64,000 bases of DNA from Eledone cirrhosa (Eukaryota), in contig OZ024740.1 of NCBI GenBank assembly GCA_964016885.1, positions 279,620,001 to 279,684,000 on the forward strand, in the 5' to 3' direction. Under the pieces are notes generated by a model, which saw nothing but the letters and a program-made list of their open reading frames with translations, was not told the origin of the DNA and did no database searches. The position numbers and the translations under genes were made by a program. Below, in pieces: positions 1 to 58,513 of this stretch (position 1 is the first letter of the stretch; the number at the start of each line of letters is the position of its first letter).

Positions 1-3000
1 ATCCATTTTTTATTTGGTGATCCATTTTTTATTTGGGGGATCCATTTTTTATTTGGGTGATCCATTTTTTATTTGGGTGATCCATTTTTTATTTGGGTGA
101 TCCATTTTTTATTTGGGTGATCCATTTTTTATTTGGGGGATCCATTTTTTATTTGGGTGATCCATTTTTTATTTGGGGGATCCATTTTTTATTTGGGGGA
201 TCCATTTTTTATTTGGTGGATCCATTTTTTATTTGGGGGATCCATTTTTTATCTGGGGGATCCATTTTTTGGGGGGGGATCCATTTTATATTTGGGTGAT
301 CCATTTTTTATTTGGGTGATCCATTTTTTATTTGGGGGATCCATTTTTTATTTGGGTGATCCATTTTTTATTTGGGCGATCCATTTTTTATTTGGGTGAT
401 CCAATTTTTTATTTGGGTGATCCATTTTTTATTTGGGGGATCAATTTTTTATTTGGGTGATCCATTTTTTATTTGGGTGATCCATTTTTTATTTGGTGAT
501 CCATTTTTTATTTGGGGGATCCATTTTTTATTTGGGTGATCCATTTTTTATTTGGGTGATCCATTTTTTATTTTGGGAATCCATTTTTAATTTGGGTGAT
601 CCATTTTTTATTTGGGTGATCCATTTTTTATTTGGGTGATCCATTTTTTATTTGGGTGATCCATTTTTTATTTGGGGGATCCATTTTTTATTTGGGTGAT
701 CCATTTTTTATTTAGGGGATCCATTTTTTATTTGGGCCATCCATTTTTTATTTGGGGGATCCATTTTTTATTTGGTGGATCCATTTTTTATTTGGGGGAT
801 CCATTTTTTATTTGGGGGATCCATTTTTTATTTTGGGGATCCATTTTATATTTGGGTGATCCATTTTTTATTTGGGTGATCCATTTTTTATTTGGGGGAT
901 CCATTTTTTATTTGGGTGATCCATTTTTTATTTGGGGGATCCATTTTTTATTTCGGTGATCCATTTTTTATTTGGGGGATCCATTTTTTATTTGGGGGTT
1001 CCATTTTTTATTTGGGGGATCCATCAAACAAAAAATGGATCACCCAAATAAAAAGTGGATCACCTAAATAAAAAATGGATCACCCAAATAAAAAATGGAT
1101 CCACCAAATAAAAAATGGATCCCCCAAATAAAAAATAGATCACACAAATAAAAAATGGATCCCCCAATTAAAAAATGGATCACCCAAATAAAAAATGGAT
1201 CACCCAAATAAAAAATGGATAACCCAAATAAAAAATGGATCCCCCAAATAAAAAATGGATCACCCAAATAAAAAATGGATCCCCCAAATAAAAAAGGGAT
1301 CCATTTTTTATTTGGGTGATCCATTTTTTATTTGGGGGATCCATTTTTTATTTGGCTTATCCATTTTTATTTGGGTGATCCATTTTTTATTTGGGTGATC
1401 CATTTTTTATTTGGGTGATTCATTTTTTATTTGGGTGATCCATTTTTAATTTTTGGGATCCATTTTTTATTTGGTGGATCCATTTTTTATTTGGGTGATC
1501 CATTTTTTATTTGGGTGATCCATTTTTTATTTGGGTGATCCATTTTTTATTTGATGGATCCCCAAATAAAAAATGGAACCCCCAAATAAAAAATGGATCC
1601 CCCAAATAAAAAATGGATCACCCAAATAAAAAATGGATCCCCCAAATAAAAAATGGATCCCCCAAATAAAAAATGAATCCCTGAAATAAAAAATGGATCC
1701 CCCAAATAAAAAAGGGATCCATTTTTTATTTGGGTGATCCATTTTTTATTTGGGGGGATCCGTTTTTTATTTGGGCGATCCATTTTTTATTTGGGTGATC
1801 CATTTTTTATTTGGGTGATCCATTTTTTATTTGGGGGATCCATTTTTTATTTGGGCGATCCATTTTTTATTTGGGTGATCCATTTTTTATTTGGGGGATC
1901 CATTTTTTATTTGGGGGATCCATTTTTTATTTGGGGGATCCATTTTTTATTTACGGGATCCATTTTTTATTTGGGTGATCCATTTTTTATTTGGGGGATC
2001 CAGTTTTTATTTGGGTGATCCATTTTTTGTTTGGGTGATCCATTTTTATTTTTTGGATCCATTTTTTATTTGGGCGATCCATTTTTTATTTGGTGATCCA
2101 TTTTGTATTTGGGGGATCCATTTTTTATTTGGGTGATCCATTTTTTATTTGGGGGATCCATTTTTTATTTGGGTGATCCATTTTTTATTTGGTGATCCAT
2201 TTTGTATTTGGGGGATCCATTTTTTATTTGGGTGATCCATTTTTTATTTGGGTGATCCATTTTTTATTTGAGGGATCCATTTTTTATTTGGGGGATCCAT
2301 TTTTTATTTGATGGATCTCCCAAATAAAAAATACATCACCCAAATAAAAAATGGATCCCCCAAATAAAAAATGGATCACCCAAATAAAAAATGGATCCCC
2401 CAAATAAAAAATGGATCACACAAATAAAAAATGGATCACCCAAATAAAAAATGAATCACCCAAATATAAAATAGATCACCCAAATAAAAAATGGATCCCC
2501 CAAATAAAAAATGGATCCCTTTTTTATTTGTCGGATCCATTTTTTATTTGGGGGATCCATTATCTATTTGAGTGATCCATTTTTTATTTGTGGGATCCAT
2601 TTTTTATTTGGGTGATCCATTTTTTATTTGGGGGATCCATTTTTTATTTGGGTGATCCATTTTCTATTTGGTGATCCATTTTTTATTTGGGGGATCCATT
2701 TTTTATTTGGGTGATCCATTTTTTATTTGGGTGATCCATTTTTTATTTGAGGGATCCATTTTTTATTTGGGGGATCCATTTTTTATTTGATGGATCTCCC
2801 AAATAAAAAATAGATCACCCAAATAAAAAATGGATCCCCCAAATAAAAAATGGATCACCCACATAGAAACTGGATCCCCCAAATAGAAAATGGATCCCCC
2901 CAAATAAAAAATGGATCCCCCAAATAAAAAATGGGTCACCCAAATAAAAATGGATCACCCAAATAAAAAATGGATCCCCCAAATAATAAAAAGAAACACC

Positions 3001-6000
3001 CAAATAAAAAATGGATCACCCAAATAAAAAATGCATCCTCCAAATAAAAAATGGATTACCCAAATAAAAAAAATCCTCCAAATAAAAAATGGATCACCCA
3101 AATAAAAAATGGATCACCCAAATAAAAAATGGATCCCCCAAATAAAAAATGGATCCCCCAAATAAAAAACGGATCCCCCAAATAAAAAATGGATCACCCA
3201 AATAAAAAATGGATCACCCAAATAAAAAATGGATCACCCAAATAAAAATTGGATCGCCCAAATAAAAAATGGATCCCCCAAATAAAAAATGGATCGCCCA
3301 AATAAAAAATGGATCCCCCAAATAAAAAATGGATCACCCAAATAAAAAATGGATCACCCAAATAAAAAATGGATCCCCAAAATAAAAAATGGATCACCCA
3401 AATAAAAAATGGATCCCTCAAATAAAAAAGGGATCACCCAAATAGAAAATGGATCACCCAAATAAAAAATGGATCCCCCAAATAAAAAATTGATCACCCA
3501 AATAAAAAATGGATCACCCAAATAACAAATGGATCCCCCAAATAAAAAATGGTTCACGAAATAAAAAATGGATCACCCAAATAAAAAATGGATCCCCCCA
3601 AATAAAAAATGGATCACCCAAATAAAAAATGGATCCCTTTTTTATTTAGCGGATCCATTTTTTATTTCGGGGATCCATTCTTTATCTGGGGGATCCATTT
3701 TTTATTTGGGTGATCCATTTTTTATTTGGGGGATCCATTTTTTATTTCGGTGATCCATTTTTTATTTGGGTGATCCATTTTTTATTTGGGGTTCCATTTT
3801 TTATTTGGGTGATCCATTTTTTATTTGGTGGATCCATTTTTTATTTGGGGGATCCATTTCTTATTTGGGTGATCCATTTTTTATTTGGGTGATCCATTTT
3901 TTATTTGGGGGATCAATTTTTTATTTGGGCGATCCATTTTTTATTTGGGTGACCCATTTTTTATTTGGTGATCCATTTTTTATTTGGGGGATCCATTTTT
4001 TATTTGGGTGATCCATTTTTTATTTGGGTGACCCATTTTTTATTTGGTGATCCATTTTTTATTTGGGTGATCCATTTTTTATTTGGGTGATCCATTTTTT
4101 ATTTGGGGGATCCGTTTTTTATTTGGGTGATCCATTTTTTATTTGGGGGATCCATTTTTTATTTGGGGGATCCATTTTTTATTTGGTGGATCCATTTTTT
4201 ATTTGGGGGATCCATTTTTTATTTGGGGGATCCATTTTTTGGGGGGGATCCATTTTATATTTGGGTGATCCATTTTTTATTTGGGTGATCCATTTTTTAT
4301 TTGGGGGATCCATTTTTTATTTGGGTGATCCATTTTTTATTTGGGCGATCCATTTTTTATTTGGGTGATCCAATTTTTTATTTGGGTGATCCATTTTTTA
4401 TTTGGGGGATCAATTTTTTATTTGGGTGATCCATTTTTTATTTGGGTGATCCATTTTTTATTTGGTGATCCATTTTTTATTTGGGGGATCCATTTTTTAT
4501 TTGGGTGATCCATTTTTTATTTGGGTGATCCATTTTTTATTTTGGGTATCCATTTTTAATTTGGGTTATCCATTTTTTATTTGGGTGATCCATTTTTTAT
4601 TTGGGTGATCCATTTTTTATTTGGGTGATCCATTTTTTATTTGGGGGATCCATTTTTTATTTGGGTGATCCATTTTTTATTTAGGGGATCCATTTTTTAT
4701 TTGGGCCATCCATTTTTTATTTGGGGGATCCATTTTTTATTTGGTGGATCCATTTATTATTTGGGGGATCCATTTTTTATTTGGGGGATCCATTTTTTAT
4801 TTTGGGGATCCATTTTATATTTGGGTGATCCATTTTTTATTTGGGTGATCCATTTTTTATTTGGGGGATCCATTTTTTATTTGGGTGATCCATTTTTTAT
4901 TTGGGGGATCCATTTTTTATTTCGGTGATCCATTTTTTATTTGGGGGATCCATTTTTTATTTGGGGGTTCCATTTTTTATTTGGGGGATCCATCAAACAA
5001 AAAATGGATCACCCAAATAAAAAATGGATCCCCCAAATAAAAAAGGGATCCATTTTTTATTTGGGTGATCCATTTTTTATTTGGGGGATCCATTTTTTAT
5101 TTGGCTTATCCATTTTTTATTTGGGTGATCCATTTTTTATTTGGGTGATCCATTTTTTATTTGGGTGATTCATTTTTTATTTGGGTGATCCATTTTTAAT
5201 TTTTGGGATCCATTTTTTATTTGGTGGATCCATTTTTTATTTGGGTGATCCATTTTTTATTTGGGTGATCCATTTTTTATTTGATGGATCCCCAAATAAA
5301 AAATGGAACCCCCAAATAAAAAATGGATCCCCCAAATAAAAAATGGATCACCCAAATAAAAAATGGATCCCCCAAATAAAAAATGGATCCCCCAAATAAA
5401 AAATGAATCCCTGAAATAAAAAATGGATCCCCCAAATAAAAAAGGGATCCATTTTTTATTTGGGTGATCCATTTTTTATTTGGGGGGATCCGTTTTTTAT
5501 TTGGGCGATCCATTTTTTATTTGGGTGATCCATTTTTTATTTGGGTGATCCATTTTTTATTTGGGGGATCCATTTTTTATTTGGGTGATCCATTTTTTAT
5601 TTGGGGGATCCATTTTTTATTTGGGGGATCCATTTTTTATTTGGGGGATCCATTTTTTATTTACGGGATCCATTTTTTATTTGGGTGATCCATTTTTTAT
5701 TTGGGGGATCCAGTTTTTATTTGGGTGATCCATTTTTTGTTTGGGTGATCCATTTTTATTTTTTGGATCCATTTTTTATTTGGGCGATCCATTTTCTATT
5801 TGGTGATCCATTTTGTATTTGGGGGATCCATTTTTTATTTGGGTGATCCATTTTTTATTTGGGGGATCCATTTTTTATTTGGGTGATCCATTTTTTATTT
5901 GGTGATCCATTTTGTATTTGGGGGATCCATTTTTTATTTGGGTGATCCATTTTTTATTTGGGTGATCCATTTTTTATTTGAGGGATCCATTTTTTATTTG

Positions 6001-7640
6001 GGGGATCCATTTTTTATTTGATGGATCTCCCAAATAAAAAATACATCACCCAAATAAAAAATGGATCCCCCAAATAAAAAATGGATCACCCAAATAAAAA
6101 ATGGATCCCCCAAATAAAAAAAAAATGGATCACACAAATAAAAAATGGATCACCCAAATAAAAAATGAATCACCCAAATATAAAATAGATCACCCAAATA
6201 AAAAATGGATCCCCCAAATAAAAAATGGATCCCTTTTTTATTTGTCGGATCCATTTTTTATTTGGGGGATCCATTATCTATTTGAGTGATCCATTTTTTA
6301 TTTGTGGGATCCATTTTTTATTTGGGTGATCCATTTTTTATTTGGGGGATCCATTTTTTATTTGGGTGATCCATTTTCTATTTGGTGATCCATTTTTTAT
6401 TTGGGGGATCCATTTTTTATTTGGGTGATCCATTTTTTATTTGGGTGATCCATTTTTTATTTGAGGGATCCATTTTTTATTTGGGGGATCCATTTTTTAT
6501 TTGATGGATCTCCCAAATAAAAAATAGATCACCCAAATAAAAAATGGATCCCCCAAATAAAAAATGGATCACCCACATAGAAACTGGATCCCCCAAATAG
6601 AAAATGGATCCCCCCAAATAAAAAATGGATCCCCCAAATAAAAAATGGATCACCCAAATAAAAATGGATCACCCAAATAAAAAATGGATCCCCCAAATAA
6701 TAAAAAGAAACACCCAAATAAAAAATGGATCACCCAAATAAAAAATGCATCCTCCAAATAAAAAATGGATTACCCAAATAAAAAAAAATCCTCCAAATAA
6801 AAAATGGATCACCCAAATAAAAAATGGATCACCCAAATAAAAAATGGATCCCCCAAATAAAAAATGGATCCCCCAAATAAAAAACGGATCCCCCAAATAA
6901 AAAATGGATCACCCAAATAAAAAATGGATCACCCAAATAAAAAATGGATCACCCAAATAAAAATTGGATCGCCCAAATAAAAAATGGATCCCCCAAATAA
7001 AAAATGGATCGCCCAAATAAAAAATGGATCCCCCAAATAAAAAATGGATCACCCAAATAAAAAATGGATCACCCAAATAAAAAATGGATCCCCCAAATAA
7101 AAAATGGATCACCCAAATAAAAAATGGATCCCTCAAATAAAAAATGGATCACCCAAATAAAAAATGGATCACCCAAATAAAAAATGGATCCCCCAAATAA
7201 AAAATTGATCCCCCCAAATAAAAAATGGATCACCCAAATAAAAAATGGATCCCTTTTTTATTTAGCGGATCCATTTTTTATTTCGGGGATCCATTCTTTA
7301 TCTGGGGGATCCATTTTTTATTTGGGTGATCCATTTTTTATTTGGGGGATCCATTTTTTATTTCGGTGATCCATTTTTTATTTGGGTGATCCATTTTTTA
7401 TTTGGGGTTCCATTTTTTATTTGGGTGATCCATTTTTTATTTGGTGGATCCATTTTTTATTTGGGGGATCCATTTCTTATTTGGGTGATCCATTTTTTAT
7501 TTGGGTGATCCATTTTTTATTTGGGGGATCAATTTTTTATTTGGGCGATCCATTTTTTATTTGGGTGACCCATTTTTTATTTGGTGATCCATTTTTTATT
7601 TGGGGGATCCATTTTTTATTTGGGTGATCCATTTTTTATT
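1..7640. repeat. Higher-order repeat, two copies of a ~3.6-4.0 kb unit containing four inverted blocks each
   Basis: Same ordered variants and near-identical ORF strings recur: 672/4641, 1527/5257, 1891/5601, 2815/6529, 3710/7326. The offset shrinks from 3969 to 3616 through internal monomer deletions. Confidence 0.9.
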
Positions 7641-10600
7641 TCGGTGATCCATTTTTTATTTGGGTGATCCATTTTTTATTTGGGTGATCCATTTTTTATT
7701 TGGGGGATCCATTTTTTATTTGGGTGATCCATTTTTTATTTGGGGGATCCATTTTTTATTTGGGGGATCCATTTTTTATTTGGTGGATCCATTTTTTATT
7801 TGGGGGATCCATTTTTTATTTGGGGGATCCATTTTTTGGGGGGATCCATTTTATATTTGGGTGATCCATTTTTTATTTGGGTGATCCATTTTTTATTTGG
7901 GGGATCCATTTTTTATTTGGGTGATCCATTTTTTATTTGGGCGATCCATTTTTTATTTGGGTGATCCAATTTTTTATTTGGGTGATCCATTTTTTATTTG
8001 GGGGATCAATTTTTTATTTGGATGATCCATTTTTTATTTGGGTGATCCATTTTTTATTTGGTGATCCATTTTTTATTTGGGGGATCCATTTTTTATTTGG
8101 GTGATCCATTTTTTATTTGGGTGATCCATTTTTTATTTTGGGTATCCATTTTTAATTTGGGTGATCCATTTTTTATTTGGGTGATCCATTTTTTATTTGG
8201 GTGATCCATTTTTTATTTGGGTGATCCATTTTTTATTTGGGGGATCCATTTTTTATTTGGGTGATCCATTTTTTATTTAGGGGATCCATTTTTTATTTGG
8301 GCCATCCATTTTTTATTTGGGGGATCCATTTTTTATTTGGTGGATCCATTTATTATTTGGGGGATCCATTTTTTATTTGGGGGATCCATTTTTTATTTTG
8401 GGGATCCATTTTATATTTGGGTGATCCATTTTTTATTTGGGTGATCCATTTTTTATTTGGGGGATCCATTTTTTATTTGGGTGATCCATTTTTTATTTGG
8501 GGGATCCATTTTTTATTTCGGTGATCCATTTTTTATTTGGGGGATCCATTTTTTATTTGGGGGTTCCATTTTTTATTTGGGGGATCCATCAAACAAAAAG
8601 TGGATCACCTAAATAAAAAATGGATCACCCAAATAAAAAATGGATCCACCAAATAAAAAATGGATCCCCCAAATAAAAAATAGATCACACAAATAAAAAA
8701 TGGATCCCCCAATTAAAAAATGGATCACCCAAATAAAAAATGGATCACCCAAATAAAAAATGGATAACCCAAATAAAAAATGGATCCCCCAAATAAAAAA
8801 TGGATCACCCAAATAAAAAATGGATCCCCCAAATAAAAAAGGGATCCATTTTTTATTTGGGTGATCCATTTTTTATTTGGGGGATCCATTTTTTATTTGG
8901 CTTATCCATTTTTTATTTGGGTGATCCATTTTTTATTTGGGTGATCCATTTTTTATTTGGGTGATTCATTTTTTATTTGGGTGATCCATTTTTAATTTTT
9001 GGGATCCATTTTTTATTTGGTGGATCCATTTTTTATTTGGGTGATCCATTTTTTATTTGGGTGATCCATTTTTTATTTGGGTGATCCATTTTTTATTTGA
9101 TGGATCCCCAAATAAAAAATGGAACCCCCAAATAAAAATGGATCCCCCAAATAAAAAATGGATCACCCAAATAAAAAATGGATCCCCCAAATAAAAAATG
9201 GATCCCCCAAATAAAAAATGAATCCCTGAAATAAAAAATGGATCCCCCAAATAAAAAAGGGATCCATTTTTTATTTGGGTGATCCATTTTTTATTTGGGG
9301 GGATCCGTTTTTTATTTGGGCGATCCATTTTTTATTTGGGTGATCCATTTTTTATTTGGGTGATCCATTTTTTATTTGGGGGATCCATTTTTTATTTGGG
9401 CGATCTATTTTTTATTTGGGTGATCCATTTTTTATTTGGGGGATCCATTTTTTATTTGGGGGATCCATTTTTTATTTGGGGGATCCATTTTTTATTTAGG
9501 GGATCCATTTTTTATTTGGGTGATCCATTTTTTATTTGGGGGATCCAGTTTTTATTTGGGTGATCCATTTTTTGTTTGGGTGATCCATTTTTATTTTTTG
9601 GATCCATTTTTTATTTGGGCGATCCATTTTTTATTTGGGGGATCCATTTTTTATTTGGGGGATCCATTTTTTATTTGGTGATCCATTTTTTATTTGGGGG
9701 ATCCATTTTTTATTTGGGTGATCCATTTTTTATTTGGGTGATCCATTTTTTATTTTGGGTATCCATTTTTAATTTGGGTGATCCATTTTTTATTTGGGTG
9801 ATCCATTTTTTATTTGGGTGATCCATTTTTTATTTGGGTGATCCATTTTTTATTTGGGGGATCCATTTTTTATTTGGGTGATCCATTTTTTATTTAGGGG
9901 ATCCATTTTTTATTTGGGCCATCCATTTTTTATTTGGGGGATCCATTTTTTATTTGGTGGATCCATTTATTATTTGGGGGATCCATTTTTTATTTGGGGG
10001 ATCCATTTTTTATTTTGGGGATCCATTTTATATTTGGGTGATCCATTTTTTATTTGGGTGATCCATTTTTTATTTGGGGGATCCATTTTTTATTTGGGTG
10101 ATCCATTTTTTATTTGGGGGATCCATTTTTTATTTCGGTGATCCATTTTTTATTTGGGGGATCCATTTTTTATTTGGGGGTTCCATTTTTTATTTGGGGG
10201 ATCCATCAAACAAAAAATGGATCACCCAAATAAAAAGTGGATCACCTAAATAAAAAATGGATCACCCAAATAAAAAATGGATCCACCAAATAAAAAATGG
10301 ATCCCCCAAATAAAAAATAGATCACACAAATAAAAAATGGATCCCCCAATTAAAAAATGGATCACCCAAATAAAAAATGGATCACCCAAATAAAAAATGG
10401 ATAACCCAAATAAAAAATGGATCCCCCAAATAAAAAATGGATCACCCAAATAAAAAAGGGATCACCCAAATAAAAAAGGGATCCATTTTTTATTTGGGTG
10501 ATCCATTTTTTATTTGGGGGATCCATTTTTTATTTGGCTTATCCATTTTTTATTTGGGTGATCCATTTTTTATTTGGGTGATCCATTTTTTATTTGGGTG

Positions 10601-13600
10601 ATTCATTTTTTATTTGGGTGATCCATTTTTAATTTTTGGGATCCATTTTTTATTTGGTGGATCCATTTTTTATTTGGGTGATCCATTTTTTATTTGGGTG
10701 ATCCATTTTTTATTTGGGTGATCCATTTTTTATTTGATGGATCCCCAAATAAAAAATGGAACCCCCAAATAAAAAATGGATCCCCCAAATAAAAAATGGA
10801 TCACCCAAATAAAAAATGGATCCCCCAAATAAAAAATGGATCCCCCAAATAAAAAATGAATCCCAGAAATAAAAAATGGATCCCCCAAATAAAAAAGGGA
10901 TCCATTTTTTATTTGGGGGATCCATTTTTTATTTGGGGGATCCATTTTTTATTTAGGGGATCCATTTTTTATTTGGGTGATCCATTTTTTATTTGGGGGA
11001 TCCAGTTTTTATTTGGGTGATCCATTTTTTGTTTGGGTGATCCATTTTTATTTTTTGGATCCATTTTTTATTTGGGCGATCCATTTTTTATTTGGGGGAT
11101 CCATTTTTTATTTGGGGGATCCATTTTTTATTTGGGGGATCCATTTTTTATTTGGGTGATCAATTTTTTATTTGGTGATCCATTTTGTATTTGGGGGATC
11201 CATTTTTTATTTGGGTGATCCATTTTTTATTTGGGGGATCCATTTTTTATTTGGGTGATCCATTTTTTATTTGGTGATCCATTTTGTATTTGGGGGATCC
11301 ATTTTTTATTTGGGTGATCCATTTTTTATTTGGGTGATCCATTTTTTATTTGAGGGATCCATTTTTTATTTGGGGGATCCATTTTTTATTTGGGGGATCC
11401 ATTTTTTATTTGATGGATCTCCCAAATAAAAAATACATCACCCAAATAAAAAATGGATCCCCCAAATAAAAAATGGATCACCCAAATAAAAAATGGATCC
11501 CCCAAATAAAAAATGGATCACACAAATAAAAAATGGATCACCCAAATAAAAAATGAATCACCCAAATATAAAATAGATCACCCAAATAAAAAATGGATCC
11601 CCCAAATAAAAAATGGATCCCTTTTTTATTTGGCGGATCCATTTTTTATTTGGGGGATCCATTATCTATTTGAGTGATCCATTTTTTATTTGTGGGATCC
11701 ATTTTTTATTTGGGTGATCCATTTTTTATTTGGGGGATCCATTTTTTATTTGGGTGATCCATTTTTTATTTGGTGATCCATTTTTTATTTGGGGGATCCA
11801 TTTTTTATTTGGGCGATCCATTTTTTATTTGGGTGACCCATTTTTTATTTGGTGATCCATTTTTTATTTGGGGGATCCATTTTTTATTTGGGTGATCCAT
11901 TTTTTATTTGGGTGATCCATTTTTTATTTGGGTGATCCATTTTTTATTTGGGTGATCCATTTTTTATTTGGGGGATCCATTTTTTATTTGGGTGATCCAT
12001 TTTTTATTTGGGGGATCCATTTTTTATTTGGGGGATCCATTTTTTATTTGGTGGATCCATTTTTTATTTGGGGGATCCATTTTTTATTTGGGGGATCCAT
12101 TTTTTGGGGGGGATCCATTTTATATTTGGGTGATCCATTTTTTATTTGGGTGATCCATTTTTTATTTGGGGGATCCATTTTTTATTTGGGTGATCCATTT
12201 TTTATTTGGGCGATCCATTTTTTATTTGGGTGATCCAATTTTTTATTTGGGTGATCCATTTTTTATTTGGGGGATCAATTTTTTATTTGGATGATCCATT
12301 TTTTATTTGGGTGATCCATTTTTTATTTGGTGATCCATTTTTTATTTGGGGGATCCATTTTTTATTTGGGTGATCCATTTTTTATTTGGGTGATCCATTT
12401 TTTATTTTGGGTATCCATTTTTAATTTGGGTGATCCATTTTTTATTTGGGTGATCCATTTTTTATTTGGGTGATCCATTTTTTATTTGGGTGATCCATTT
12501 TTTATTTGGGGGATCCATTTTTTATTTGGGTGATCCATTTTTTATTTAGGGGATCCATTTTTTATTTGGGCCATCCATTTTTTATTTGGGGGATCCATTT
12601 TTTATTTGGTGGATCCATTTATTATTTGGGGGATCCATTTTTTATTTGGGGGATCCATTTTTTATTTTGGGGATCCATTTTATATTTGGGTGATCCATTT
12701 TTTATTTGGGTGATCCATTTTTTATTTGGGGGATCCATTTTTTATTTGGGTGATCCATTTTTTATTTGGGGGATCCATTTTTTATTTCGGTGATCCATTT
12801 TTTATTTGGGGGATCCATTTTTTATTTGGGGGTTCCATTTTTTATTTGGGGGATCCATCAAACAAAAAATGGATCACCCAAATAAAAAGTGGATCACCTA
12901 AATAAAAAATGGATCACCCAAATAAAAAATGGATCCACCAAATAAAAAATGGATCCCCCAAATAAAAAATAGATCACACAAATAAAAAATGGATCCCCCA
13001 ATTAAAAAATGGATCACCCAAATAAAAAATGGATCACCCAAATAAAAAATGGATAACCCAAATAAAAAATGGATCCCCCAAATAAAAAATGGATCACCCA
13101 AATAAAAAATGGATCCCCCAAATAAAAAAGGGATCCATTTTTTATTTGGGTGATCCATTTTTTATTTGGGGGATCCATTTTTTATTTGGCTTATCCATTT
13201 TTTATTTGGGTGATCCATTTTTTATTTGGGTGATCCATTTTTTATTTGGGTGATTCATTTTTTATTTGGGTGATCCATTTTTAATTTTTGGGATCCATTT
13301 TTTATTTGGTGGATCCATTTTTTATTTGGGTGATCCATTTTTTATTTGGGTGATCCATTTTTTATTTGGGTGATCCATTTTTTATTTGATGGATCCCCAA
13401 ATAAAAAATGGAACCCCCAAATAAAAAATGGATCCCCCAAATAAAAAATGGATCACCCAAATAAAAAATGGATCCCCCAAATAAAAAATGGATCCCCCAA
13501 ATAAAAAATGAATCCCTGAAATAAAAAATGGATCCCCCAAATAAAAAAGGGATCCATTTTTTATTTGGGTGATCCATTTTTTATTTGGGGGGATCCGTTT

Positions 13601-18955: not shown

Positions 18956-19959
18956 TTGGGGGATCCATTTTTTATTTGGGTGATCAATTTTTTATTTGGT
19001 GATCCATTTTGTATTTGGGGGATCCATTTTTTATTTGGGTGATCCATTTTTTATTTGGGGGATCCATTTTTTATTTGGGTGATCCATTTTTTATTTGGTG
19101 ATCCATTTTGTATTTGGGGGATCCATTTTTTATTTGGGTGATCCATTTTTTATTTGGGTGATCCATTTTTTATTTGAGGGATCCATTTTTTATTTGGGGG
19201 ATCCATTTTTTATTTGGGGGATCCATTTTTTATTTGATGGATCTCCCAAATAAAAAATACATCACCCAAATAAAAAATGGATCCCCCAAATAAAAAATGG
19301 ATCACCCAAATAAAAAATGGATCCCCCAAATAAAAAATGGATCACACAAATAAAAAATGGATCACCCAAATAAAAAATGAATCACCCAAATATAAAATAG
19401 ATCACCCAAATAAAAAATGGATCCCCCAAATAAAAAATGGATCCCTTTTTTATTTGGCGGATCCATTTTTTATTTGGGGGATCCATTATCTATTTGAGTG
19501 ATCCATTTTTTATTTGTGGGATCCATTTTTTATTTGGGTGATCCATTTTTTATTTGGGGGATCCATTTTTTATTTGGGTGATCCATTTTTTATTTGGTGA
19601 TCCATTTTTTATTTGGGGGATCCATTTTTTATTTGGGTGATCCATTTTTTATTTGGGTGATCCATTTTTTATTTGAGGGATCCATTTTTTATTTGGGGGA
19701 TCCATTTTTTATTTGATGGATCTCCCAAATAAAAAATAGATCACCCAAATAAAAAATGGATCCCCCAAATAAAAAATGGATCACCCACATAGAAACTGGA
19801 TCCCCCAAATAGAAAATGGATCCCCCCAAATAAAAAATGGATCCCCCAAATAAAAAATGGATCCCCCAAATAAAAAATGGATCCCCCAAATAAAAAATGG
19901 ATCCCCTAAATAAAAAATGGATCACCCAAATAAAAAATGGATCACCCAAATAAAAAATG

Positions 19960-29004: not shown

Positions 29005-29129
29005 GGGGATCCGTTTTTTATTTGGGCGATGCATTTTTTATTTGGGTGATCCATTTTTTATTTGGGTGATCCATTTTTTATTTGGGGGATCCATTTTTTA
29101 TTTGGGCGATCCATTTTTTATTTGGGTGA

Positions 29130-46300: not shown

Positions 46301-49300
46301 AAATAAAAAATGGATCACCCAAATAAAAAATGGATCCCCCAAATAAAAAATGGATCACCCAAATAAAAAATGGATCCCCCAAATACAAAATGGATCCCCC
46401 AAATAAAAAATGGATCCCCCAAATAAAAAAGGGAACCATTTTTTATTTGGGTGATCCATTTTTTATTTGGGTGATCAATTTTTTATTTGGGTGATTCATT
46501 TTTTATTTGGGTGATCCATTTTTAATTTTTGGGATCCATTTTTTATTTGGTGGATCCATTTTTTATTTGGGTGATCCATTTTTTATTTGGGTGATCCATT
46601 TTTTATTTGAGGGATCCATTTTTTATTTGGGGGATCCATTTTTTATTTGATGGATCTCCCAAATTAAAAATAGATCACCCAAATAAAAAATGGATCCCCC
46701 AAATAAAAAATGGATCACCCAAATAAAAACTGGATCCCCCAAATAAAAAATGGATCCCCCCAAATAAAAAATGGATCCCCCCAAATAAAAAATGGATCCC
46801 CTAAATAAAAAATGGATCACCCAAATAAAAAATGGATCACCCAAATAAAAAATGGATCACCCAAATAAAAAATAGATCGCCCAAATAAAAAATGGATCCA
46901 AAAAATAAAAAATGGATCGCCCAAATAAAAAATGGATCCCCCAAATAAAAAATGGATCACCCAAATAAAAAATGGATCACCCAAATAAAAAATGGATCGC
47001 CCAAATAAAAAACGGATCCCCCTAAATAAAAAATGGATCACCCAAATAAAAAATGGATCCCTTTTTTATTTGGGGGATCCATTTTTTATTTCAGGGATTC
47101 ATTTTTTATTTGGGGGATCCATTTTTTATTTGGTGGATCCATTTTTTATTTGGGTGATCCATTTTTTGTTTGGGGGATCCATTTTTTATTTGGGGGTTCC
47201 ATTTTATATTTGGGGATCCATCAAATAAAAAATGGATCACCCAAATAAAAAATGGATCACCCAAATAAAAAATGGATCCCCCAAATAAAAAATGGATCCC
47301 CCAAATAAAAAATGAATCCCTGAAATAAAAAATGGATCCCCCAAATAAAAAATGAATCCCTGAAATAAAAAATGGATCCCCCAAATAAAAAATGGATCCC
47401 CCAAATAAAAAATGGATCACCCAAATAAAAAATGGATCCCTTTTTTATTTGGGGGATCCATTTTTTATTTCAGGGATTCATTTTTTATTTGGGGGATCCA
47501 TTTTTTATTTCAGGGATTCATTTTTTATTTGGGGGATCCATTTTTTATTTGGGGGATCCATTTTTTATTTGGGTGATCCATTTTTTATTTGGGTGATCCA
47601 TTTTTTATTTGATGGATCCCCAAATATAAAATGGAACCCCCAAATAAAAAATGGATCCCCCAAACAAAAAATGGATCACCCAAATAAAAAATGGATCCCC
47701 CAAATAAAAAATGGATCCCCCAAATAAAAAATGAATCCCTGAAATAAAAAATGGATCCCCCAAATAAAAAAGGGATCCATTTTTTATTTGGGTGATCCAT
47801 TTTTTATTTAGGGGGATCCGTTTTTTATTTGGGCGATCCATTTTTTATTTGGGTGATCCATTTTTTATTTGGGTGATCCATTTTTTATTTGGGGGATCCA
47901 TTTTTTATTTGGGCGATCCATTTTTTATTTGGGTGATCCATTTTTTATTTGGGGGATCCATTTTTTATTGGGGGGATCCATTTTTTATTTGGGGGATCCA
48001 TTTTTTATTTAGGGGATCCATTTTTTATTTGGGTGATCCATTTTTTATTTGGGGGATCCAGTTTTTATTTGGCTGATCCATTTTTTGTTTGGGTGATCCA
48101 TTTTTATTTTTTGGATCCATTTTTTATTTGGGCGATCCATTTTTTATTTGGGTGATCCATTTTTTATTTGGGGGATCCATTTTTTATTTGGGTGATCCAT
48201 TTTTTATTTGGTGATCCATTTTGTATTTGGGGGATCCATTTTTTATTTGGGTGATCCATTTTTTATTTGGGGGATCCATTTTTTATTTGGGTGATCCATT
48301 TTTTATTTGGTGATCCATTTTGTATTTGGGGGATCCATTTTTTATTTGGGTGATCCATTTTTTATTTGGGTGATCCATTTTTTATTTGAGGGATCCATTT
48401 TTTATTTGGGGGATCCATTTTTTATTTGATGGATCTCCCAAATAAAAAATACATCACCCAAATAAAAAATGGATCCCCCAAATAAAAAATGGATCACCCA
48501 AATAAAAAATGGATCCCCCAAATAAAAAATGGATCACCCAAATAAAAAGTGGATCACCCAAATAAAAAATGAATCACCCAAATATAAAATAGATCACCCA
48601 AATAAAAAATGGATCCCCCAAATAAAAAATGGATCCCTTTTTTATTTGGCGGATCCATTTTTTATTTGGGGGATCCATTATCTATTTGAGTGATCCATTT
48701 TTTATTTGTGGGATCCATTTTTTATTTGGGTGATCCATTTTTTATTTGGGGGATCCATTTTTTATTTGGGTGATCCATTTTTTATTTGGTGATCCATTTT
48801 TTATTTGGGGGATCCATTTTTTATTTGGGTGATCCATTTTTTATTTGGGTGATCCATTTTTTATTTGAGGGATCCATTTTTTATTTGGGGGATCCATTTT
48901 TTATTTGATGGATCTCCCAAATAAAAAATAGATCACCCAAATAAAAAATGGATCCCCCAAATAAAAAATGGATCACCCAAATAAAAACTGGATCCCCCAA
49001 ATAAAAAATGGATCCCCCCAAATAAAAAATGGATCCCCCCAAATAAAAAATGGATCCCCTAAATAAAAAATGGATCACCCAAATAAAAAATGGATCACCC
49101 AAATAAAAAATGGATCACCCAAATAAAAAATAGATCGCCCAAATAAAAAATGGATCCAAAAAATAAAAAATGGATCACCCAAATAAAAAATGGATCACCC
49201 CCCCAAAAAATCGATCCCCAAATAAAAAATGGATCACCCAAATAATAAATGGATCCCCCAAATAAAAAATGGATCACCCAAATAAAAAATGGATCCCCCA

Positions 49301-49395
49301 AATAAAAAATGGATCCCCCAAATAAAAAATGGATCCCCCCCAATAAAAAATGGATCACCCCCCAAAAAAATGGATCACCCAAATAAAAAATGGAT
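40898..49395 (+). repeat. Left arm (~8.5 kb) of giant inverted duplication
   Basis: ORFs mirror those in 50012-58513 on the opposite strand with a near-constant coordinate sum of 99409-99430, e.g. 42672..42890+/56539..56757-, 43607..43822-/55607..55822+, 48881..49102-/50307..50528+. Confidence 0.93.
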
Positions 49396-50011
49396 CACCC
49401 AAATAAAAAATGGATCCCCCAAATAAAAAATGGATCACCCAAATAAAAAATGGATCACCCAAATAAAAAATGGACCCCCAAATAAAAAATGGATCACCCA
49501 AATAAAAAATGGATCACACAAATAAAAAATGGATCCCCGAAATAAAAAATGGATCCGCCAAATAAAAAATGGATCCATTTTTTATTTGGGTGATCCATTT
49601 TTTATTTAGGGTGATCCGTTTTTATTTGGGTGATCCATTTTTTATTTGGGTGATTCCTTTTTTATTTGGGTGATCCATTTTTTATTTGGGTGATCCATTT
49701 TTTATTTGAGTGATCCATTCTTTATTTGAGGGATCCATTTTTTATTTGGGTGATCCATTTTTTATTTGGGGGATCCATTTTTTATTTGGGCGATCCATTT
49801 TTTATTTGGGTGATCCATTTTTTATTTGGGTGATCCATTTTTTATTTGGGGGATCCATTTTTTATTTGGGGGATCCATTTTTTATTTGGGTGATCCATTT
49901 TTTATTTGGGGGATCCATTTTTAATTTGGGTGATCCATTTTTTATTTGGTTGATCCATTTTTTATTTGGGTGATCCATTTTTTATTTGAGGGATCCATTT
50001 TTTATTTTTTG
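43570..50011. repeat. Direct duplication with 3978-bp offset (~43570-46030 repeated at ~47550-50011)
   Basis: ORF pairs 43607/47585, 43814/47792, 44903/48881, 45117/49095 and 45732/49710 all differ by 3978. Confidence 0.9.
46903..47930. repeat. Near-perfect ~1-kb palindrome (arms ~490 bp, ~48-bp spacer, centre ~47416)
   Basis: Mirror ORF pairs sum to 94833: 46992..47228+/47605..47841-, 47033..47248+/47585..47800-, 47106-/47727+. The doubled TGAATCCCTG variant is mirrored as doubled CAGGGATTCA. Confidence 0.9.
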
Positions 50012-53000
50012 GATCCATTTTTTATTTGGGTGATCCATTTATTTGGGGGGTGATCCATTTTTTATTGGGGGGGGATCCATTTTTTATTTGGGGGATCCAT
50101 TTTTTATTTGGGGGATCCATTTTTTATTTGGGTGATCCATTTTTTATTTGGGGGATCCATTTTTTATTTGGGTGATCCATTTTTTATTTGGGGATCGATT
50201 TTTTTGGGGGGTGATCCATTTTTTATTTGGGTGATCCATTTTTTATTTTTTGGATCCATTTTTTATTTGGGCGATCTATTTTTTATTTGGGTGATCCATT
50301 TTTTATTTGGGTGATCCATTTTTTATTTGGGTGATCCATTTTTTATTTAGGGGATCCATCTTTTATTTGGGGGGATCCATTTTTTATTTGGGGGGATCCA
50401 TTTTTTATTTGGGGGATCCAGTTTTTATTTGGGTGATCCATTTTTTATTTGGGGGATCCATTTTTTATTTGGGTGATCTATTTTTTATTTGGGAGATCCA
50501 TCAAATAAAAAATGGATCCCCCAAATAAAAAATGGATCCCTCAAATAAAAAATGGATCACCCAAATAAAAAATGGATCACCCAAATAAAAAATGGATCCC
50601 CCAAATAAAAAATGGATAACCAAATAAAAAATGGATCACCCAAATAAAAAATGGATCCCCCAAATAAAAAATGGATCACCCAAATAAAAAATGGATCCCA
50701 CAAATAAAAAATGGATCACTCAAATAGATAATGGATCCCCCAAATAAAAAATGGATCCGCCAAATAAAAAAGGGATCCATTTTTTATTTGGGGGATCCAT
50801 TTTTTATTTGGGTGATCTATTTTATATTTGGGTGATTCATTTTTTATTTGGGTGATCCACTTTTTATTTGGGTGATCCATTTTTTATTTGGGGGATCCAT
50901 TTTTTATTTGGGTGATCCATTTTTTATTTGGGGGATCCATTTTTTATTTGGGTGATGTATTTTTTATTTGGGAGATCCATCAAATAAAAAATGGATCCCC
51001 CAAATAAAAAATGGATCCCTCAAATAAAAAATGGATCACCCAAATAAAAAATGGATCACCCAAATAAAAAATGGATCCCCCAAATACAAAATGGATCACC
51101 AAATAAAAAATGGATCACCCAAATAAAAAATGGATCCCCCAAATAAAAAATGGATCACCCAAATAAAAAATGGATCCCCCAAATACAAAATGGATCACCA
51201 AATAAAAAATGGATCACCCAAATAAAAAATGGATCCCCCAAATAAAAAATGGATCACCCAAATAAAAAATGGATCGCCCAAATAAAAAATGGATCCAAAA
51301 AATAAAAATGGATCACCCAAACAAAAAATGGATCAGCCAAATAAAAACTGGATCCCCCAAATAAAAAATGGATCACCCAAATAAAAAATGGATCCCCTAA
51401 ATAAAAAATGGATCCCCCAAATAAAAAATGGATCCCCCCAATAAAAAATGGATCCCCCAAATAAAAAATGGATCACCCAAATAAAAAATGGATCGCCCAA
51501 ATAAAAAATGGATCCCCCAAATAAAAAATGGATCACCCAAATAAAAAATGGATCACCCAAATAAAAAATGGATCGCCCAAATAAAAAACGGATCCCCCTA
51601 AATAAAAAATGGATCACCCAAATAAAAAATGGATCCCTTTTTTATTTGGGGGATCCATTTTTTATTTCAGGGATTCATTTTTTATTTGGGGGATCCATTT
51701 TTTATTTGGGGGATCCATTTTTTATTTGGGTGATCCATTTTTTGTTTGGGGGATCCATTTTTTATTTGGGGGTTCCATTTTATATTTGGGGATCCATCAA
51801 ATAAAAAATGGATCACCCAAATAAAAAATGGATCACCCAAATAAAAAATGGATCCCCCAAATAAAAAATGGATCCCCCAAATAAAAAATGAATCCCTGAA
51901 ATAAAAAATGGATCCCCCAAATAAAAAATGAATCCCTGAAATAAAAAATGGATCCCCCAAATAAAAAAGGGATCCATTTTTTATTTGGGTGATCCATTTT
52001 TTATTTGGGGGATCCATTTTTTATTTGGGGGATCCATTTTTTATTTCAGGGATTCATTTTTTATTTGGGGGATCCATTTTTTATTTCAGGGATTCATTTT
52101 TTATTTGGGGGATCCATTTTTTATTTGGGGGATCCATTTTTTATTTGGGTGATCCATTTTTTATTTGGGTGATCCATTTTTTATTTGATGGATCCCCAAA
52201 TATAAAATGGAACCCCCAAATAAAAAATGGATCCCCCAAACAAAAAATGGATCACCCAAATAAAAAATGGATCCACCAAATAAAAAATGGATCCCCCAAA
52301 TAAAAAATGAATCCCTGAAATAAAAAATGGATCCCCCAAATAAAAAAGGGATCCATTTTTTATTTGGGTGATCCATTTTTTATTTAGGGGGATCCGTTTT
52401 TTATTTGGGCGATCCATTTTTTATTTGGGTGATCCATTTTTTATTTGGGTGATCCATTTTTTATTTGGGGGATCCATTTTTTATTTGGGCGATCCATTTT
52501 TTATTTTTTGGATCCATTTTTTATTTGGGCGATCTATTTTTTATTTGGGTGATCCATTTTTTATTTGGGTGATCCATTTTTTATTTGGGTGATCCATTTT
52601 TTATTTAGGGGATCCATTTTTTATTTGGGGGGATCCATTTTTTATTTGGGGGGATCCATTTTTTATTTGGGGGATCCAGTTTTTATTTGGGTGATCCATT
52701 TTTTATTTGGGGGATCCATTTTTTATTTGGGTGATCTATTTTTAATTTGGGAGATCCATCAAATAAAAAATGGATCCCCCAAATAAAAAATGGATCCCTC
52801 AAATAAAAAATGGATCACCCAAATAAAAAATGGATCACCCAAATAAAAAATGGATCACCCAAATAAAAAATGGATCCACCAAATAAAAAATGGATCCCAA
52901 AAATTAAAAATGGATCACCCAAATAAAAAATGAATCACCCAAATAAAAAATTGATCACCCAAATAAAAAATGGATCACCCAAATAAAAAATGGTTCCCTT

Positions 53001-56000
53001 TTTTATTTGGGGGATCCATTTTTTATTTGGGGGATCCATTTTGTATTTGGGGGATCCATTTTTTATTTGGGTGATCCATTTTTTATTTGGGGGATCCATT
53101 TTTTATTTGGGTGATCCATTTTTTATTTGGGTGATCCATTTTTTATTTGGGGGTCCATTTTTTATTTCGGTTATCCATTTTTTATTTGGGTGATCCATTT
53201 TTTATTTGGGGGATCCAGTTTTTATTTGGATGATCCATTTTTTATTTGGGTGATCCATTTTTTATTTGATGGATCCCCCAAATAAAAAATGGAACCCCGA
53301 AATAAAAAATGGATACCCCAAATAAAGAATGGATCACCCAAATAAAAAATGGATCACCCAAATAAAAAATGGATCCCCCAAATAAAAAATGGATCCAAAA
53401 AATAAAAAATGGATCCCTCAAATAAAAAATGGATCACCCAAATAAAAAATGGATCACCCAAATAAAAAATGGATCACCCAAATTAAAAATGGATCCCCCA
53501 AATAAAAAATGGATCACCCAAATAAAAAATGGATCCCCCAAATAAAAAATGGATCCCCCAAATAAAAAATGGATCACCCAAATAAAAAATGGATCACCCA
53601 AATAAAAAATGGATCGCCCAAATAAAAAATGGATCCCCCAAATAAAAAATGGATCACCCAAATAAAAAATGGATCCCTCAAATAAAGAATGGATCACTCA
53701 AATAAAAAATGGATCACCCAAATAAAAAATGGATCACCCAAATAAAAAAGGAATCACCCAAATAAAAAATGGATCACCCAAATAAAAACGGATCACCCTA
53801 AATAAAAAATGGATCACCCAAATAAAAAATGGATCCATTTTTTATTTGGCGGATCCATTTTTTATTTCGGGGATCCATTTTTTATTTGTGTGATCCATTT
53901 TTTATTTGGGTGATCCATTTTTTATTTGGGGGTCCATTTTTTATTTGGGTGATCCCGTTTTTATTTGGGTGATCCATTGTTTATTTGGGGGATCCATTTT
54001 TTATTTGGGTGATCCATTTTTTATTTGGGTGATCCATTTTTTGGGGGGGTGATCCATTTTTTATTGGGGGGGATCCATTTTTTATTTGGGGTATCCATTT
54101 TTTATTTGGGGGATCCATTTTTTATTTGGGTGATCCATTTTTTATTTGGGGGATCCATTTTTTATTTGGGTGATCCATTTTTTATTTGGGGATCGATTTT
54201 TTGGGGGGGTGATCCATTTTTTATTTGGGTGATCCATTTTTTATTTTTTGGATCCATTTTTTATTTGGGCGATCTATTTTTTATTTGGGTGATCCATTTT
54301 TTATTTGGGTGATCCATTTTTTATTTGGGTGATCCATTTTTTATTTAGGGGATCCATTTTTTATTTGGGGGGATCCATTTTTTATTTGGGGGGATCCATT
54401 TTTTATTTGGGGGATCCAGTTTTTATTTGGGTGATCCATTTTTTATTTGGGGGATCCATTTTTTATTTGGGTGATCTATTTTTTATTTGGGAGATCCATC
54501 AAATAAAAAATGGATCCCCCAAATAAAAAATGGATCCCTCAAATAAAAAATGGATCACCCAAATAAAAAATGGATCACCCAAATAAAAAATGGATCCCCC
54601 AAATAAAAAATGTATCACCAAATAAAAAATGGATCACCCAAATAAAAAATGGATCCCCCAAATAAAAAATGGATCACCCAAATAAAAAATGGATCCCACA
54701 AATAAAAAATGGATCACTCAAATAGATAATGGATCCCCCAAATAAAAAATGGATCCGCCAAATAAAAAAAGGATCCATTTTTTATTTGGGGGATCCATTT
54801 TTTATTTGGGTGATCTATTTAATATTTGGGTGATTCATTTTTTATTTGGGTGATCCACTTTTTATTTGGGTGATCCATTTTTTATTTGGGGGATCCATTT
54901 TTTATTTGGGTGATCCATTTTTTATTTGGGGGATCCATTTTTTATATGGGTGATGTATTTTTTATTTGGGAGATCCATCAAATAAAAAATGGATCCCCCA
55001 AATAAAAAATGGATCCCTCAAATAAAAAATGGATCACCCAAATAAAAAATGGATCACCCAAATAAAAAATGGATCCCCCAAATACAAAATGGATCACCAA
55101 ATAAAAAATGGATCACCCAAATAAAAAATGGATCCCCCAAATAAAAAATGGATCACCCAAATAAAAAATGGATCCCCCAAATACAAAATGGATCACCAAA
55201 TAAAAAATGGATCACCCAAATAAAAAATGGATCCCCCAAATAAAAAATGGATCACCCAAATAAAAAATGGATCGCCCAAATAAAAAATGGATCCAAAAAA
55301 TAAAAATGGATCACCCAAACAAAAAATGGATCAGCCAAATAAAAACTGGATCCCCCAAATAAAAAATGGATCACCCAAATAAAAAATGGATCCCCTAAAT
55401 AAAAAATGGATCCCCCAAATAAAAAATGGATCCCCCCAATAAAAAATGGATCCCCCAAATAAAAAATGGATCACCCAAATAAAAAATGGATCGCCCAAAT
55501 AAAAAATGGATCCCCCAAATAAAAAATGGATCACCCAAATAAAAAATGGATCACCCAAATAAAAAATGGATCGCCCAAATAAAAAACGGATCCCCCTAAA
55601 TAAAAAATGGATCACCCAAATAAAAAATGGATCCCTTTTTTATTTGGGGGATCCATTTTTTATTTCAGGGATTCATTTTTTATTTGGGGGATCCATTTTT
55701 TATTTGGGGGATCCATTTTTTATTTGGGTGATCCATTTTTTGTTTGGGGGATCCATTTTTTATTTGGGGGTTCCATTTTATATTTGGGGATCCATCAAAT
55801 AAAAAATGGATCACCCAAATAAAAAATGGATCACCCAAATAAAAAATGGATGACCCAAATAAAAAATGGATCACCCAAATAAAAAATGGATCACCCAAAT
55901 AAAAAATGGATCCACCAAATAAAAAATGGATCCCAAAAATTAAAAATGGATCACCCAAATAAAAAATGAATCACCCAAATAAAAAATGGATCTCCCAAAT

Positions 56001-58513
56001 AAAAAATGTATCCCCCAAATAAAAAATGGATCGCCCAAATAAAAAATGGATCACCCAAATAAAAAATGGATCACCCAAATATAATATGGATCCCCCAAAT
56101 AAAAAATGGATCCCCCAAATAAAAAATTGATCACCCAAATAAAAAATGGATCCCCCAAATAAAAAAGGGATCCATTTTTTATTTGGGTGATCCATTTTTT
56201 ATTTGGGTGATCCATTTTTTATTTGGGGAATCCATTTTTTATTTGGGTGATCCAATTTTTATTTGGGTGATCTATTTTTTATTTGGGGGATCCATTTTTT
56301 ATTTGGGTTATCCATTTTTTATTTGGGTGATCCATTTTTTATTTGGGTGATCCATTTTTTATTTGGGGGATCCATTTTTTATTTGTGTGATCTATTTTTT
56401 ATTTGGGGGATCCATTTTTTATTTGGTGGATCCATTTTTTATTTGGGTGATCCATTTTTTATTTGGGTGATACATTTTTTGTTTGGGTGATCCATTTTTT
56501 ATTTGGGTGATACATTTTTTATTTGGGGGATCCATTTTTTATTTAGGTGATCCACTTTTTATTTGGGTGATCCATTTTTTGTTTGATGGATCCCCCAAAT
56601 AAAAAATGGAACCCCCAAATAAAAAATGGATCCCCCAAATAAAAAATGGATCACCGAAAAAAAAATTGATCCCCCAAATAAAAAATGGATCACCCAAATA
56701 AAAAATGGATCCCCCAAATAAAAAATGGATCACCCAAATAAAAAATGGATCACCCAAATATAAAATGGATCCCCAAAATAAAAAATGGATCCCCTAAATA
56801 AAAAATGGATCCCCTAAATAAAAAATGGATCCACCAAATAAAAAATGGATCCCCCATATAAAAATGGATCGCCCAAATAAAAAATGGATCCTCCAAATAA
56901 AAAATGGATCACCCAAATAAAAAATGGATCCCCCAAATAAAAAATGGATTACCCAAATAAAAAATGGATCACCCAAATAAAAAATGGATCACCCAAATAA
57001 AAAATTGATCCCCCAAATAAAAAATGGATCACCCAAATAAAAAATGGATCACCCAAATAAAAAATGGATCGCCCAAATAAAAAATGGATCACCCAAATAA
57101 AAAATGGATCCCCCAAATAAAAAATGGATCACCTAAATAAAAAATGGATCACCCAAATATAAAATGGATCCCCCCCAAAAATATGATCCCCCAAATAAAA
57201 AATGGATCCCCCAAATAAAAAATCGATCCACCAAATAAAAAATGGATCCCCCAAATAAAAAATGGATCCCCCAAATAAAAAATGGATCACCCAAATAAAA
57301 AATGAATCCCCCAAATAAAAAATGGATCACCCAAATAAAAAATGGATCACCCAAATAAAAAATGGATCACCCAAATAAAAAATGGATCACCCAAATTAAA
57401 TATGGATACCTCAAATAAAAAGGGATCACCCAAATAAAAAATGGATCACCCAAATAAAAAATGAATCCCCCAAATAAAAAATGGATCACCAAATAAAAAA
57501 TGGATCACCCAAATAAAAAATGGATCACCCAAATAAAAAATTGATCCCCCAAATAAAAAATGGATCACCCAAATAAAAAATGGATCACCCAAATAAAAAA
57601 TGGATCCCCCAAATAAAAAATGGATCCACCAAATAAAAAATAGATCACCCAAATAAAAAATGGAACCCCAAATAAAAAATGGATCACCCAAATAAAAAAT
57701 GGATCACCGAAATAAAAAATGGATCCCCCAAATAAAAAATGGATCACCCAAATAAAAAATGGATCCCCCAAATAAAAAATGGATCACCCAAATGAAAAAT
57801 GGATCACCCAAATAAAAAATGGATCCCCCAAATAAAGAATGGATCCCCGAAATAAAAAATGGATCCGCTAAATAAAAAAGGGATCCATTTTTTATCTGGG
57901 TGATCCATTTTTTATTTGGGGGGATCCATTTTTTATTTAGGTGTTCCACTTTTTATTTGGGTGATACATTTTTTGTTTTTATGGATCACCCAAATAAAAA
58001 ATGGAACCCCCAAATAAAAAATGGATCCCCCAAATACAAAATGGATCACCGTAAAAAAAATTGATCCCCCAAATAGAAAATGAATCACCCAAATAAAAAA
58101 TGGATCCCCCAAATAAAAAATGGATCCCCAAAATAAAAAATGGATCCCCCAAATAAAAAATGGATCCCCCAAATAAAAAATGGATCACCCAAATAAAAAA
58201 TGGATCGCCCAAATAAAAAATGGACCCCAAAAATACAAAATGGATCCCCCAAATAAAAAATGGATCCCCCAAATAAAAAATGGATCACCCAAATAAAAAT
58301 GGATCACCCAAACAAAAAATGGATCACCCAAATAAAAACTGGATCCCCCAAATAAAGAATGGAACACCCAAATAAAAAATGGATCCCCCAAATAAAAAAT
58401 GGATCCCCCAAATAAAAAATGGATCCCCCAAATAAAAAATGGATCACCCAAATAAAAAATGGATCGCCCAAATAAAAAACGGATCCCCCCAAATAAAAAA
58501 TGGATCACCCAAA
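50012..58513 (-). repeat. Right arm (~8.5 kb) of giant inverted duplication
   Basis: Reverse complement of 40898-49395 including private variants: GGGTCATCC ~43563 / GGATGACCC ~55848, CCCATATAAAA ~44479 / TTTTATATGGG ~54940, GATCCATAAAAACAAA ~41443 / TTTGTTTTTATGGATC ~57972. Confidence 0.93.
51479..52506. repeat. Second copy of the ~1-kb palindrome (centre ~51992) inside the right giant arm
   Basis: Mirror ORF pairs sum to 103985: 51568..51804+/52181..52417- and 51609..51824+/52161..52376-. Confidence 0.9.

Follow-up and report, generated by a model that had tools for sequence, protein, structure and literature searches.

The sequence considered here is a 64,000-bp stretch of the Eledone cirrhosa genome (assembly GCA_964016885.1, contig OZ024740.1, forward-strand positions 279,620,001 to 279,684,000). 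This single 64-kb window is the scope of our analysis, and it is occupied by one 20-bp satellite whose monomers change orientation 133 times. All of these switches use one tail-to-tail joint and one head-to-head joint. We propose that the joints most likely derive from one founding inversion, or two at most, and that they then likely spread by tandem duplication and were flipped by homology-directed template switches that reuse old joints.

The window has a G+C content of 32% and contains no sequence other than the satellite; its 2,890 GATC sites are mostly spaced 20 bp apart. Monomers were called by dynamic-programming segmentation, with cuts at the centre of GATC, which yielded 3,204 monomers of 226 types. 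The two dominant types have 962 and 662 copies and differ at a single base (a g type and a t type), and 2,646 of the 3,204 monomers lie within one edit of them. Monomers are grouped into 134 blocks of alternating orientation, the 132 inner blocks containing 3 to 68 monomers (median 14), and exact direct repeats of up to 3,573 bp indicate higher-order duplication. A long tandem array of like monomers with higher-order repeats is satellite DNA; a reading as structured RNA was dropped, as the window gave no Rfam match at the gathering threshold. The last switch lies at position 57,985, with none beyond it in the window.

1..64000, no strand assigned: 20-bp satellite array of 3,204 monomers, the whole window being one monomer family.
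1019..57985, no strand assigned: mixed-orientation domain with 133 switches, about one per 430 bp, from the segmentation.

Two independent segmentations gave the same totals, 67 tail-to-tail (forward-to-reverse) and 66 head-to-head (reverse-to-forward) switches. The 67 tail junctions form one class, in which the two orientations number 36 and 31. The exact core TTTGATGGATC is present in 63 (34 plus, 29 minus), and the other four, at 37251, 40026, 41444 and 57985, are point variants of it. A first-pass annotation of this DNA had described just such a stereotyped joint in both orientations, and the 11 junction coordinates that it quoted, as well as the GATC sites at 1537 and 1557, all read as it claimed. 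It had also remarked on the lack of a simple symmetric junction; four 10-mers representing a symmetric tail joint were searched across the window, and each had zero matches. Monomers ending in ATGGA number 65, and every one sits at a tail junction. We simulated simple inversions in a pure array, using all 400 breakpoint pairs for each pairing of the two main monomers, and just 2 of the 400 pairs produced the exact tail joint. Because so few breaks yield it, uniformity across 67 junctions is not a matter of chance, although the junctions are copies rather than independent events. Foreign sequence is absent from the switches, since simulated breaks in pure monomers reproduce the joints base for base.

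The copies fall into lineages. Tail flanks were oriented and compared, and the flank tree that the first-pass annotation had called for was built for the window, with a bootstrap that is not fully settled. The 67 junctions occur in 23 distinct 120-bp contexts, and all belong to one of two lineages, which we call alpha and beta. Alpha comprises 42 copies (16 plus, 26 minus), in all 42 of which the next dyad on the partner side is mutated; the same ending is found in 21 of 2,411 monomers away from junctions. Beta comprises 25 copies (20 plus, 5 minus) and forms a clade with support of 100/99; its marker is a partner monomer present in 25 of 25 copies and in none of the 2,411 monomers away from junctions.

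1550..1560, plus strand: tail junction, alpha example with a 19-bp partner monomer, from core and flank marker.
1018..1028, minus strand: tail junction, alpha example, from core and flank marker.
2307..2317, plus strand: tail junction, beta example, from core and flank marker.
50495..50505, minus strand: tail junction, beta example, from core and flank marker.

Because flank markers that are rare or absent elsewhere define the two tail lineages, descent with copying in both orientations is supported, and a common ancestor for both lineages is plausible. On the same markers, repeated de novo formation of each joint can be rejected for copies within a lineage and could account for the alpha/beta split alone. 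The first-pass annotation had offered two explanations, one ancestral event copied in both orientations or a sequence-specific mechanism that remakes the same joint. The copying part of the former is borne out by the two marker lineages and by the large inverted duplication described below, while its single ancestor is weakened by the lack of a derived marker common to both; the latter fails within lineages, which have common markers and no mirror signal, and could apply only between them.

Two further features of the blocks bear on how they change. The shortest inverted block, of three monomers (4989-5048), apparently arose by deletion from the 14-monomer block at 1020-1299 and retains both joints. 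Separately, the blocks at 46435-46654 and 52755-52994 have a head part matching the block type at 33502, which has an alpha tail, and a tail that is the hybrid side of beta, which points to in-block recombination between lineages.

Joints being flipped can be seen in an inverted duplication with 8.5-kb arms at the right of the mixed domain.

40907..49394, plus strand: left arm of the inverted duplication, 425 monomers with 11 tail and 10 head junctions, from arm alignment.
50014..58504, minus strand: right arm of the inverted duplication, 425 monomers, from arm alignment.
49395..50013, no strand assigned: unmirrored 619-bp spacer, whose old head junction (49573) is where the large palindrome turns, from alignment.
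49574..50496, plus strand: chimeric forward block, with the inner switch near 50014 within a same-sense run, from block comparison.
46917..47916, no strand assigned: nested palindrome, its two arms of about 480 bp separated by a 40-bp spacer, for which the existing head junction 47436 is the turning point, from repeat comparison.

In the alignment of the two arms, which has two gaps of a whole monomer, 402 of 424 monomer pairs are identical and the other 22 show one or two base differences; the differences are mostly substitutions, with private variants on either arm. Each arm carries 21 joints (11 tail, 10 head). The first 22 monomers of the chimeric block agree with the block at 45596, and its last 24 or so mirror the block at 48913. 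At its outer end the duplication likewise stops within a same-sense run, which continues into the adjoining switch-free array. Because both ends of the duplication lie inside same-sense monomer runs, 21 joints were reversed without one new joint being made. All five minus copies of beta are inside the right arm, and are thus accounted for by this single event. We infer that both palindromes arose when a template switch, or recombination, joined monomers of the same sense from blocks of opposite orientation.

Head-to-head switches, which the first-pass annotation overlooked, are also stereotyped. An asymmetric class makes up 55 of the 66 (52 start with TCCC and 3 are point variants), and the remaining 11 have a palindromic centre. 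Three rare markers tie together 51 of the 66, including all 11 of the palindromic class. In five of those 11 (20201, 22537, 24395, 26731 and 30606) the palindrome is made imperfect by one extra base in one arm; the remaining six have no such insertion.

1708..1727, no strand assigned: head junction of the asymmetric class (55/66), near-reciprocal partner of the tail joint, from simulation.
45580..45611, no strand assigned: head junction of the palindromic class (11/66), which shares rare flank markers with the asymmetric class.

In the simulated inversions, breaks that give the exact tail joint also give the head joint with one mismatch, and the converse is true. This is suggestive of head and tail joints being the reciprocal products, to within one base, of a single inversion beside a GGATCC dyad. 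For the g-type monomer, 11 of the 400 breakpoint pairs come within one base of the head joint, and 10 of these 11 are among the 20 in-register pairs; reciprocity would thus be strong evidence only against unconstrained breaks.

On the most probable reading, the present array arose in three steps. First, a segment would have inverted between two GGATCC dyads, its two breaks becoming the two joints, with the longest inverted self-match setting the register in the absence of selection. Second, blocks and joints appear to have been copied together in higher-order repeats of 1.6 to 10 kb, a pattern that can be seen in the window, with block lengths changing by whole monomers. Third, when blocks of both orientations were present, strands would have switched from a monomer in one block to a same-sense monomer in a block of the other orientation, turning at an old joint; the pattern is present in two cases, and the mechanism is our reading of it. 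Such an event would invert kilobases of DNA and turn every joint inside them, yet create no new breakpoint sequence.

An unlikely alternative is that a fold-back or replication template switch at neighbouring GGATCC dyads, similar to origin-dependent inverted-repeat amplification (ODIRA), produced the tail joint in independent events, at the least one for alpha and one for beta. The tail joint does have the form of a short interrupted inverted repeat: close to each of the 67 is a perfect stem, 4 to 15 bp long, whose loop measures 9 to 12 nt, and near most of them the longest perfect stem is closed by a 10-nt loop. In addition, the flanks of alpha and beta are unrelated, and a common in-block monomer (59 copies) is one base off the hybrid monomer of the joint. 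However, such an origin predicts mirror arms, and at the offset so predicted monomer pairs are on average 1.86 edits apart, while random pairs are 1.89 edits apart. Across five offsets and both joint types we found no mirror-arm signal, the means ranging from 1.67 to 2.01 against the same 1.89 (copies are not independent here), and mirror-copy arms are seen only in the two recent palindromes rather than in the joints as a set. The closest monomer that is informative does not fit a mirror in most copies either: a t-type monomer precedes all 42 alpha hybrids, yet the partner is g-type in 39 of 42. Moreover, a switch inside the dyad would give the symmetric joint, of which none was found, and the markers common to each lineage show copying. 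As described in PMC10766183, ODIRA products are inverted duplications with an asymmetric turning point, which our two recent palindromes resemble. In that process, however, new junctions form at short inverted repeats in unique DNA, whereas the recent events here rely on extended homology between monomers and on a joint that was already there; the founder joints, unlike ODIRA products, are without mirror arms.

It is also conceivable, though we regard it as improbable, that the joints have been kept by selection, either for helical phasing or for a chromatin role of hairpin or cruciform tips. The latter is suggested by the Tribolium authors for macro-dyads in the passages on function (PMC13081366, PMC12581902). 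The absence of a symmetric tail joint would fit with selection, as would the regular length of the hybrid monomer, which is 20 bp in 65 of 67 tail junctions. This is the part of the 20-bp register claimed by the first-pass annotation that stands. In 14 of 67 junctions, among them the annotation's own example at 1551, the partner monomer measures 19 bp, so that both sides are 20 bp in just 51. The same annotation had proposed a comparison of spacing at junctions with that inside blocks; tabulated for the window, off-length monomers amount to 22 of 266 beside junctions versus 279 of 2,938 (9.5%) within blocks, and monomer starts occupy all 20 phases. The centres of A/T tracts are 20 bp apart in blocks, 26 bp apart across 48 of 67 tail joints and 14 bp apart across 60 of 66 head joints. 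This shift of 6 bp is about half a helical turn, and thus the spacing relevant to curvature is broken at the joints. A phasing constraint, as the annotation had suggested, is not supported. Aligning the GGATCC dyad in register gives the longest inverted self-match (6 bp for the g type and 4 bp for the t type, with other offsets reaching 3 bp or less), and in-register joints are therefore explained without selection.

The other form of selection, on folding, draws on the fact that 100-nt junction windows fold at -31.6 to -37.8 kcal/mol, far more strongly than two in-block windows (-5.1 and -8.8). However, such folding is expected of any inverted satellite junction. Point changes are tolerated in the joint cores, 11 of 66 head joints are palindromic at the centre, and the adjoining 5.5 kb of the same satellite has no switch, all of which argues against joints being maintained for a role.

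That library amplification, fold-back reads or assembly produced the switches artificially is barely credible. Fold-back reads can yield large near-perfect palindromes, but the arms of the large palindrome here differ by 22 monomer changes and two whole-monomer gaps, with private variants on both, and the joints bear nested lineage markers. An amplification or assembly chimera was rejected for a similar reason: random, sample-specific breakpoints are expected, and one joint class with nested lineages was found. Four of seven available sequencing runs (X1, X4, X5 and X6) were compared over positions 4900-5140. In raw reads of X5, from a second study, five changes (4984, 4985, 4991, 4992 and 4993), whose combination gives the beta joint in plus orientation, are each present in 10 to 11 of about 20 to 30 reads with only 2-3 start points, and a change at 4986, which marks beta in minus orientation, in 8 of 23 reads with 6 starts; in X6 these changes are present in 2 to 5 reads out of 8 to 19, these counts all being among the changes listed. 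The beta joint in reads is deduced from the matching change counts, as the changes are unphased per read. In X1 such changes sit 19 and 27 letters inside contig ends, so these contigs span the joint. X1 may be the window's own sample. That the best-matching runs may come from that sample favours an artefact, like the lack of depth across the joint in X4; raw reads of two other samples, X5 and X6, both from the second study, nevertheless carry the junction's diagnostic bases, which argues against one.

The same reads allow some separate observations. Summed contig depth exceeds one million at consensus positions, where depth is not a copy number. Three opposite-strand joints considered as new switch types were set aside, each being a single low-depth contig that continues the same monomer sense through the reversed block. 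Reads that run on into unlike sequence make up 63% of the aligned reads in X5 and 73% in X6, with loose ends clustering at 5045 to 5059 among those listed. Such reads may come from the edges of arrays or from short copies dispersed elsewhere in the genome, which perhaps have a preferred end.

Returning to one founding inversion followed by copying, several observations weigh against it. Alpha and beta have no common derived flank marker, and 15 of the 66 head joints carry none of the rare markers that would place them with the rest. Reciprocity is one base off, and it is weak evidence once breaks are in register, as 10 of the 20 in-register pairs come within one base of the observed head joint. 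The read comparison is confined to positions 4900-5140, with the large palindrome outside it, and X4 has no contig depth at 4991 to 4993 of the joint. Finally, that the uniform joint records descent rather than function is deduced from a lack of constraint.

The switch-free array may preserve something of the founder.

58505..64000, minus strand: array built from this same 20-bp monomer but free of switches, with variants of its own and higher-order repetition every 2,113 bp or so, from repeat comparison.
61035..61154, minus strand: candidate pre-inversion allele, one of seven sites, read from the monomer pattern.

This array joins the mixed domain via the end of the inverted duplication. Seven sites between 58900 and 63300 combine a monomer that is one base off the hybrid with the alpha marker two monomers further on. 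Away from block tails, all seven monomers with the alpha-marker ending sit two places after such a near-hybrid (7 of 19 near-hybrids), and inverting the three monomers after the near-hybrid would give the alpha context. The seven sites are higher-order copies of perhaps one or two ancestors, and the pattern was found post hoc. We can therefore offer only a tentative and rather doubtful hypothesis: that the whole 57-kb mixed domain arose from one three-monomer (60-bp) micro-inversion whose un-inverted allele survives in the adjoining array, its two joints becoming self-propagating turning points for later fold-back duplications. This 60-bp founder requires two base changes, whereas the reciprocal reading requires one.

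How does this array compare with known systems? Neither of two monomer motifs was found in any paper by a full-text literature search, which leaves most subscription papers outside it, and no published report could be matched to this 20-bp family from literature titles and abstract openings. Foldback transposons carry tandem short repeats as inverted, internally repetitive arms, a likeness to this array. Unlike them, however, the 64 kb has no unique interior, terminal sequence or target-site duplication, and the head joint is asymmetric in 55 of 66 cases. A Foldback transposon or miniature inverted-repeat transposable element was rejected, as symmetric termini, target-site duplication and unique interior are all absent in the window; reads with unique flanks do exist elsewhere in the genome.

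The closest parallel is found in flour beetles. In Tribolium freemani, the passages on TfSat01 (PMC12581902) describe arrays in which orientation switches at six conserved types, built of truncated monomers without foreign sequence, for which loops of 9 to 27 bp are predicted; its authors there judge that inversion events alone could not explain switches so pervasive, and suggest that structure or circular DNA is involved. TfSat01 is like our array in its opposite-orientation subarrays, few conserved joint types and lack of foreign sequence. It differs, as described there, in its six types, kilobase subarrays (mostly two per array), minor-satellite cassettes and occurrence on several chromosomes, whereas the monomer here is 20 bp long, the single tail joint and single head joint are near-reciprocal, orientation changes about once per 430 bp and there is no second satellite. 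In T. madens, two predominant conserved inversion types are described in the major satellite and one in the minor (TmSat1/TmSat2; INV_1a, INV_1b and INV_2), with function versus spread left open by the authors in the passages concerned (PMC13081366). Kilobase palindrome-like arrays with highly conserved inversion sites are common to that species and our window, and its two main types may be compared with alpha and beta. Unlike here, its monomers are 225 and 704 bp and its degenerate junction subunits are 10.7 to 23.5% diverged, and the passages on its inversions trace none that reuses old junctions (PMC13081366). According to the same paper, in its account of macro-dyads, these are documented only in Tribolium.

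Our window has the opposite subarrays with few conserved joint types, the lack of foreign sequence at switches and the multi-kb dyad symmetry (8.5-kb arms) of the Tribolium arrays, although blocks of one orientation are much shorter here (median 14 monomers). It consists of one monomer family, with no intermingled minor-satellite cassettes, and because these are lacking we regard it as working like Tribolium macro-dyads but as a different family. Conserved-joint macro-dyad organisation is thus already known from flour beetles; here it is far denser, and comes with an internal record of how the sites spread.

Conserved inversion points in satellite macro-dyads have been taken as a hint of function, and this array offers a neutral model for them, one in which variant monomers record each copying step. 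The model predicts that new large inversions end in same-sense runs and add no joint, and both traceable cases here comply. If the 60-bp founder were true, one neutral accident would suffice to produce the macro-dyad architecture put forward in Tribolium as a centromere signal.

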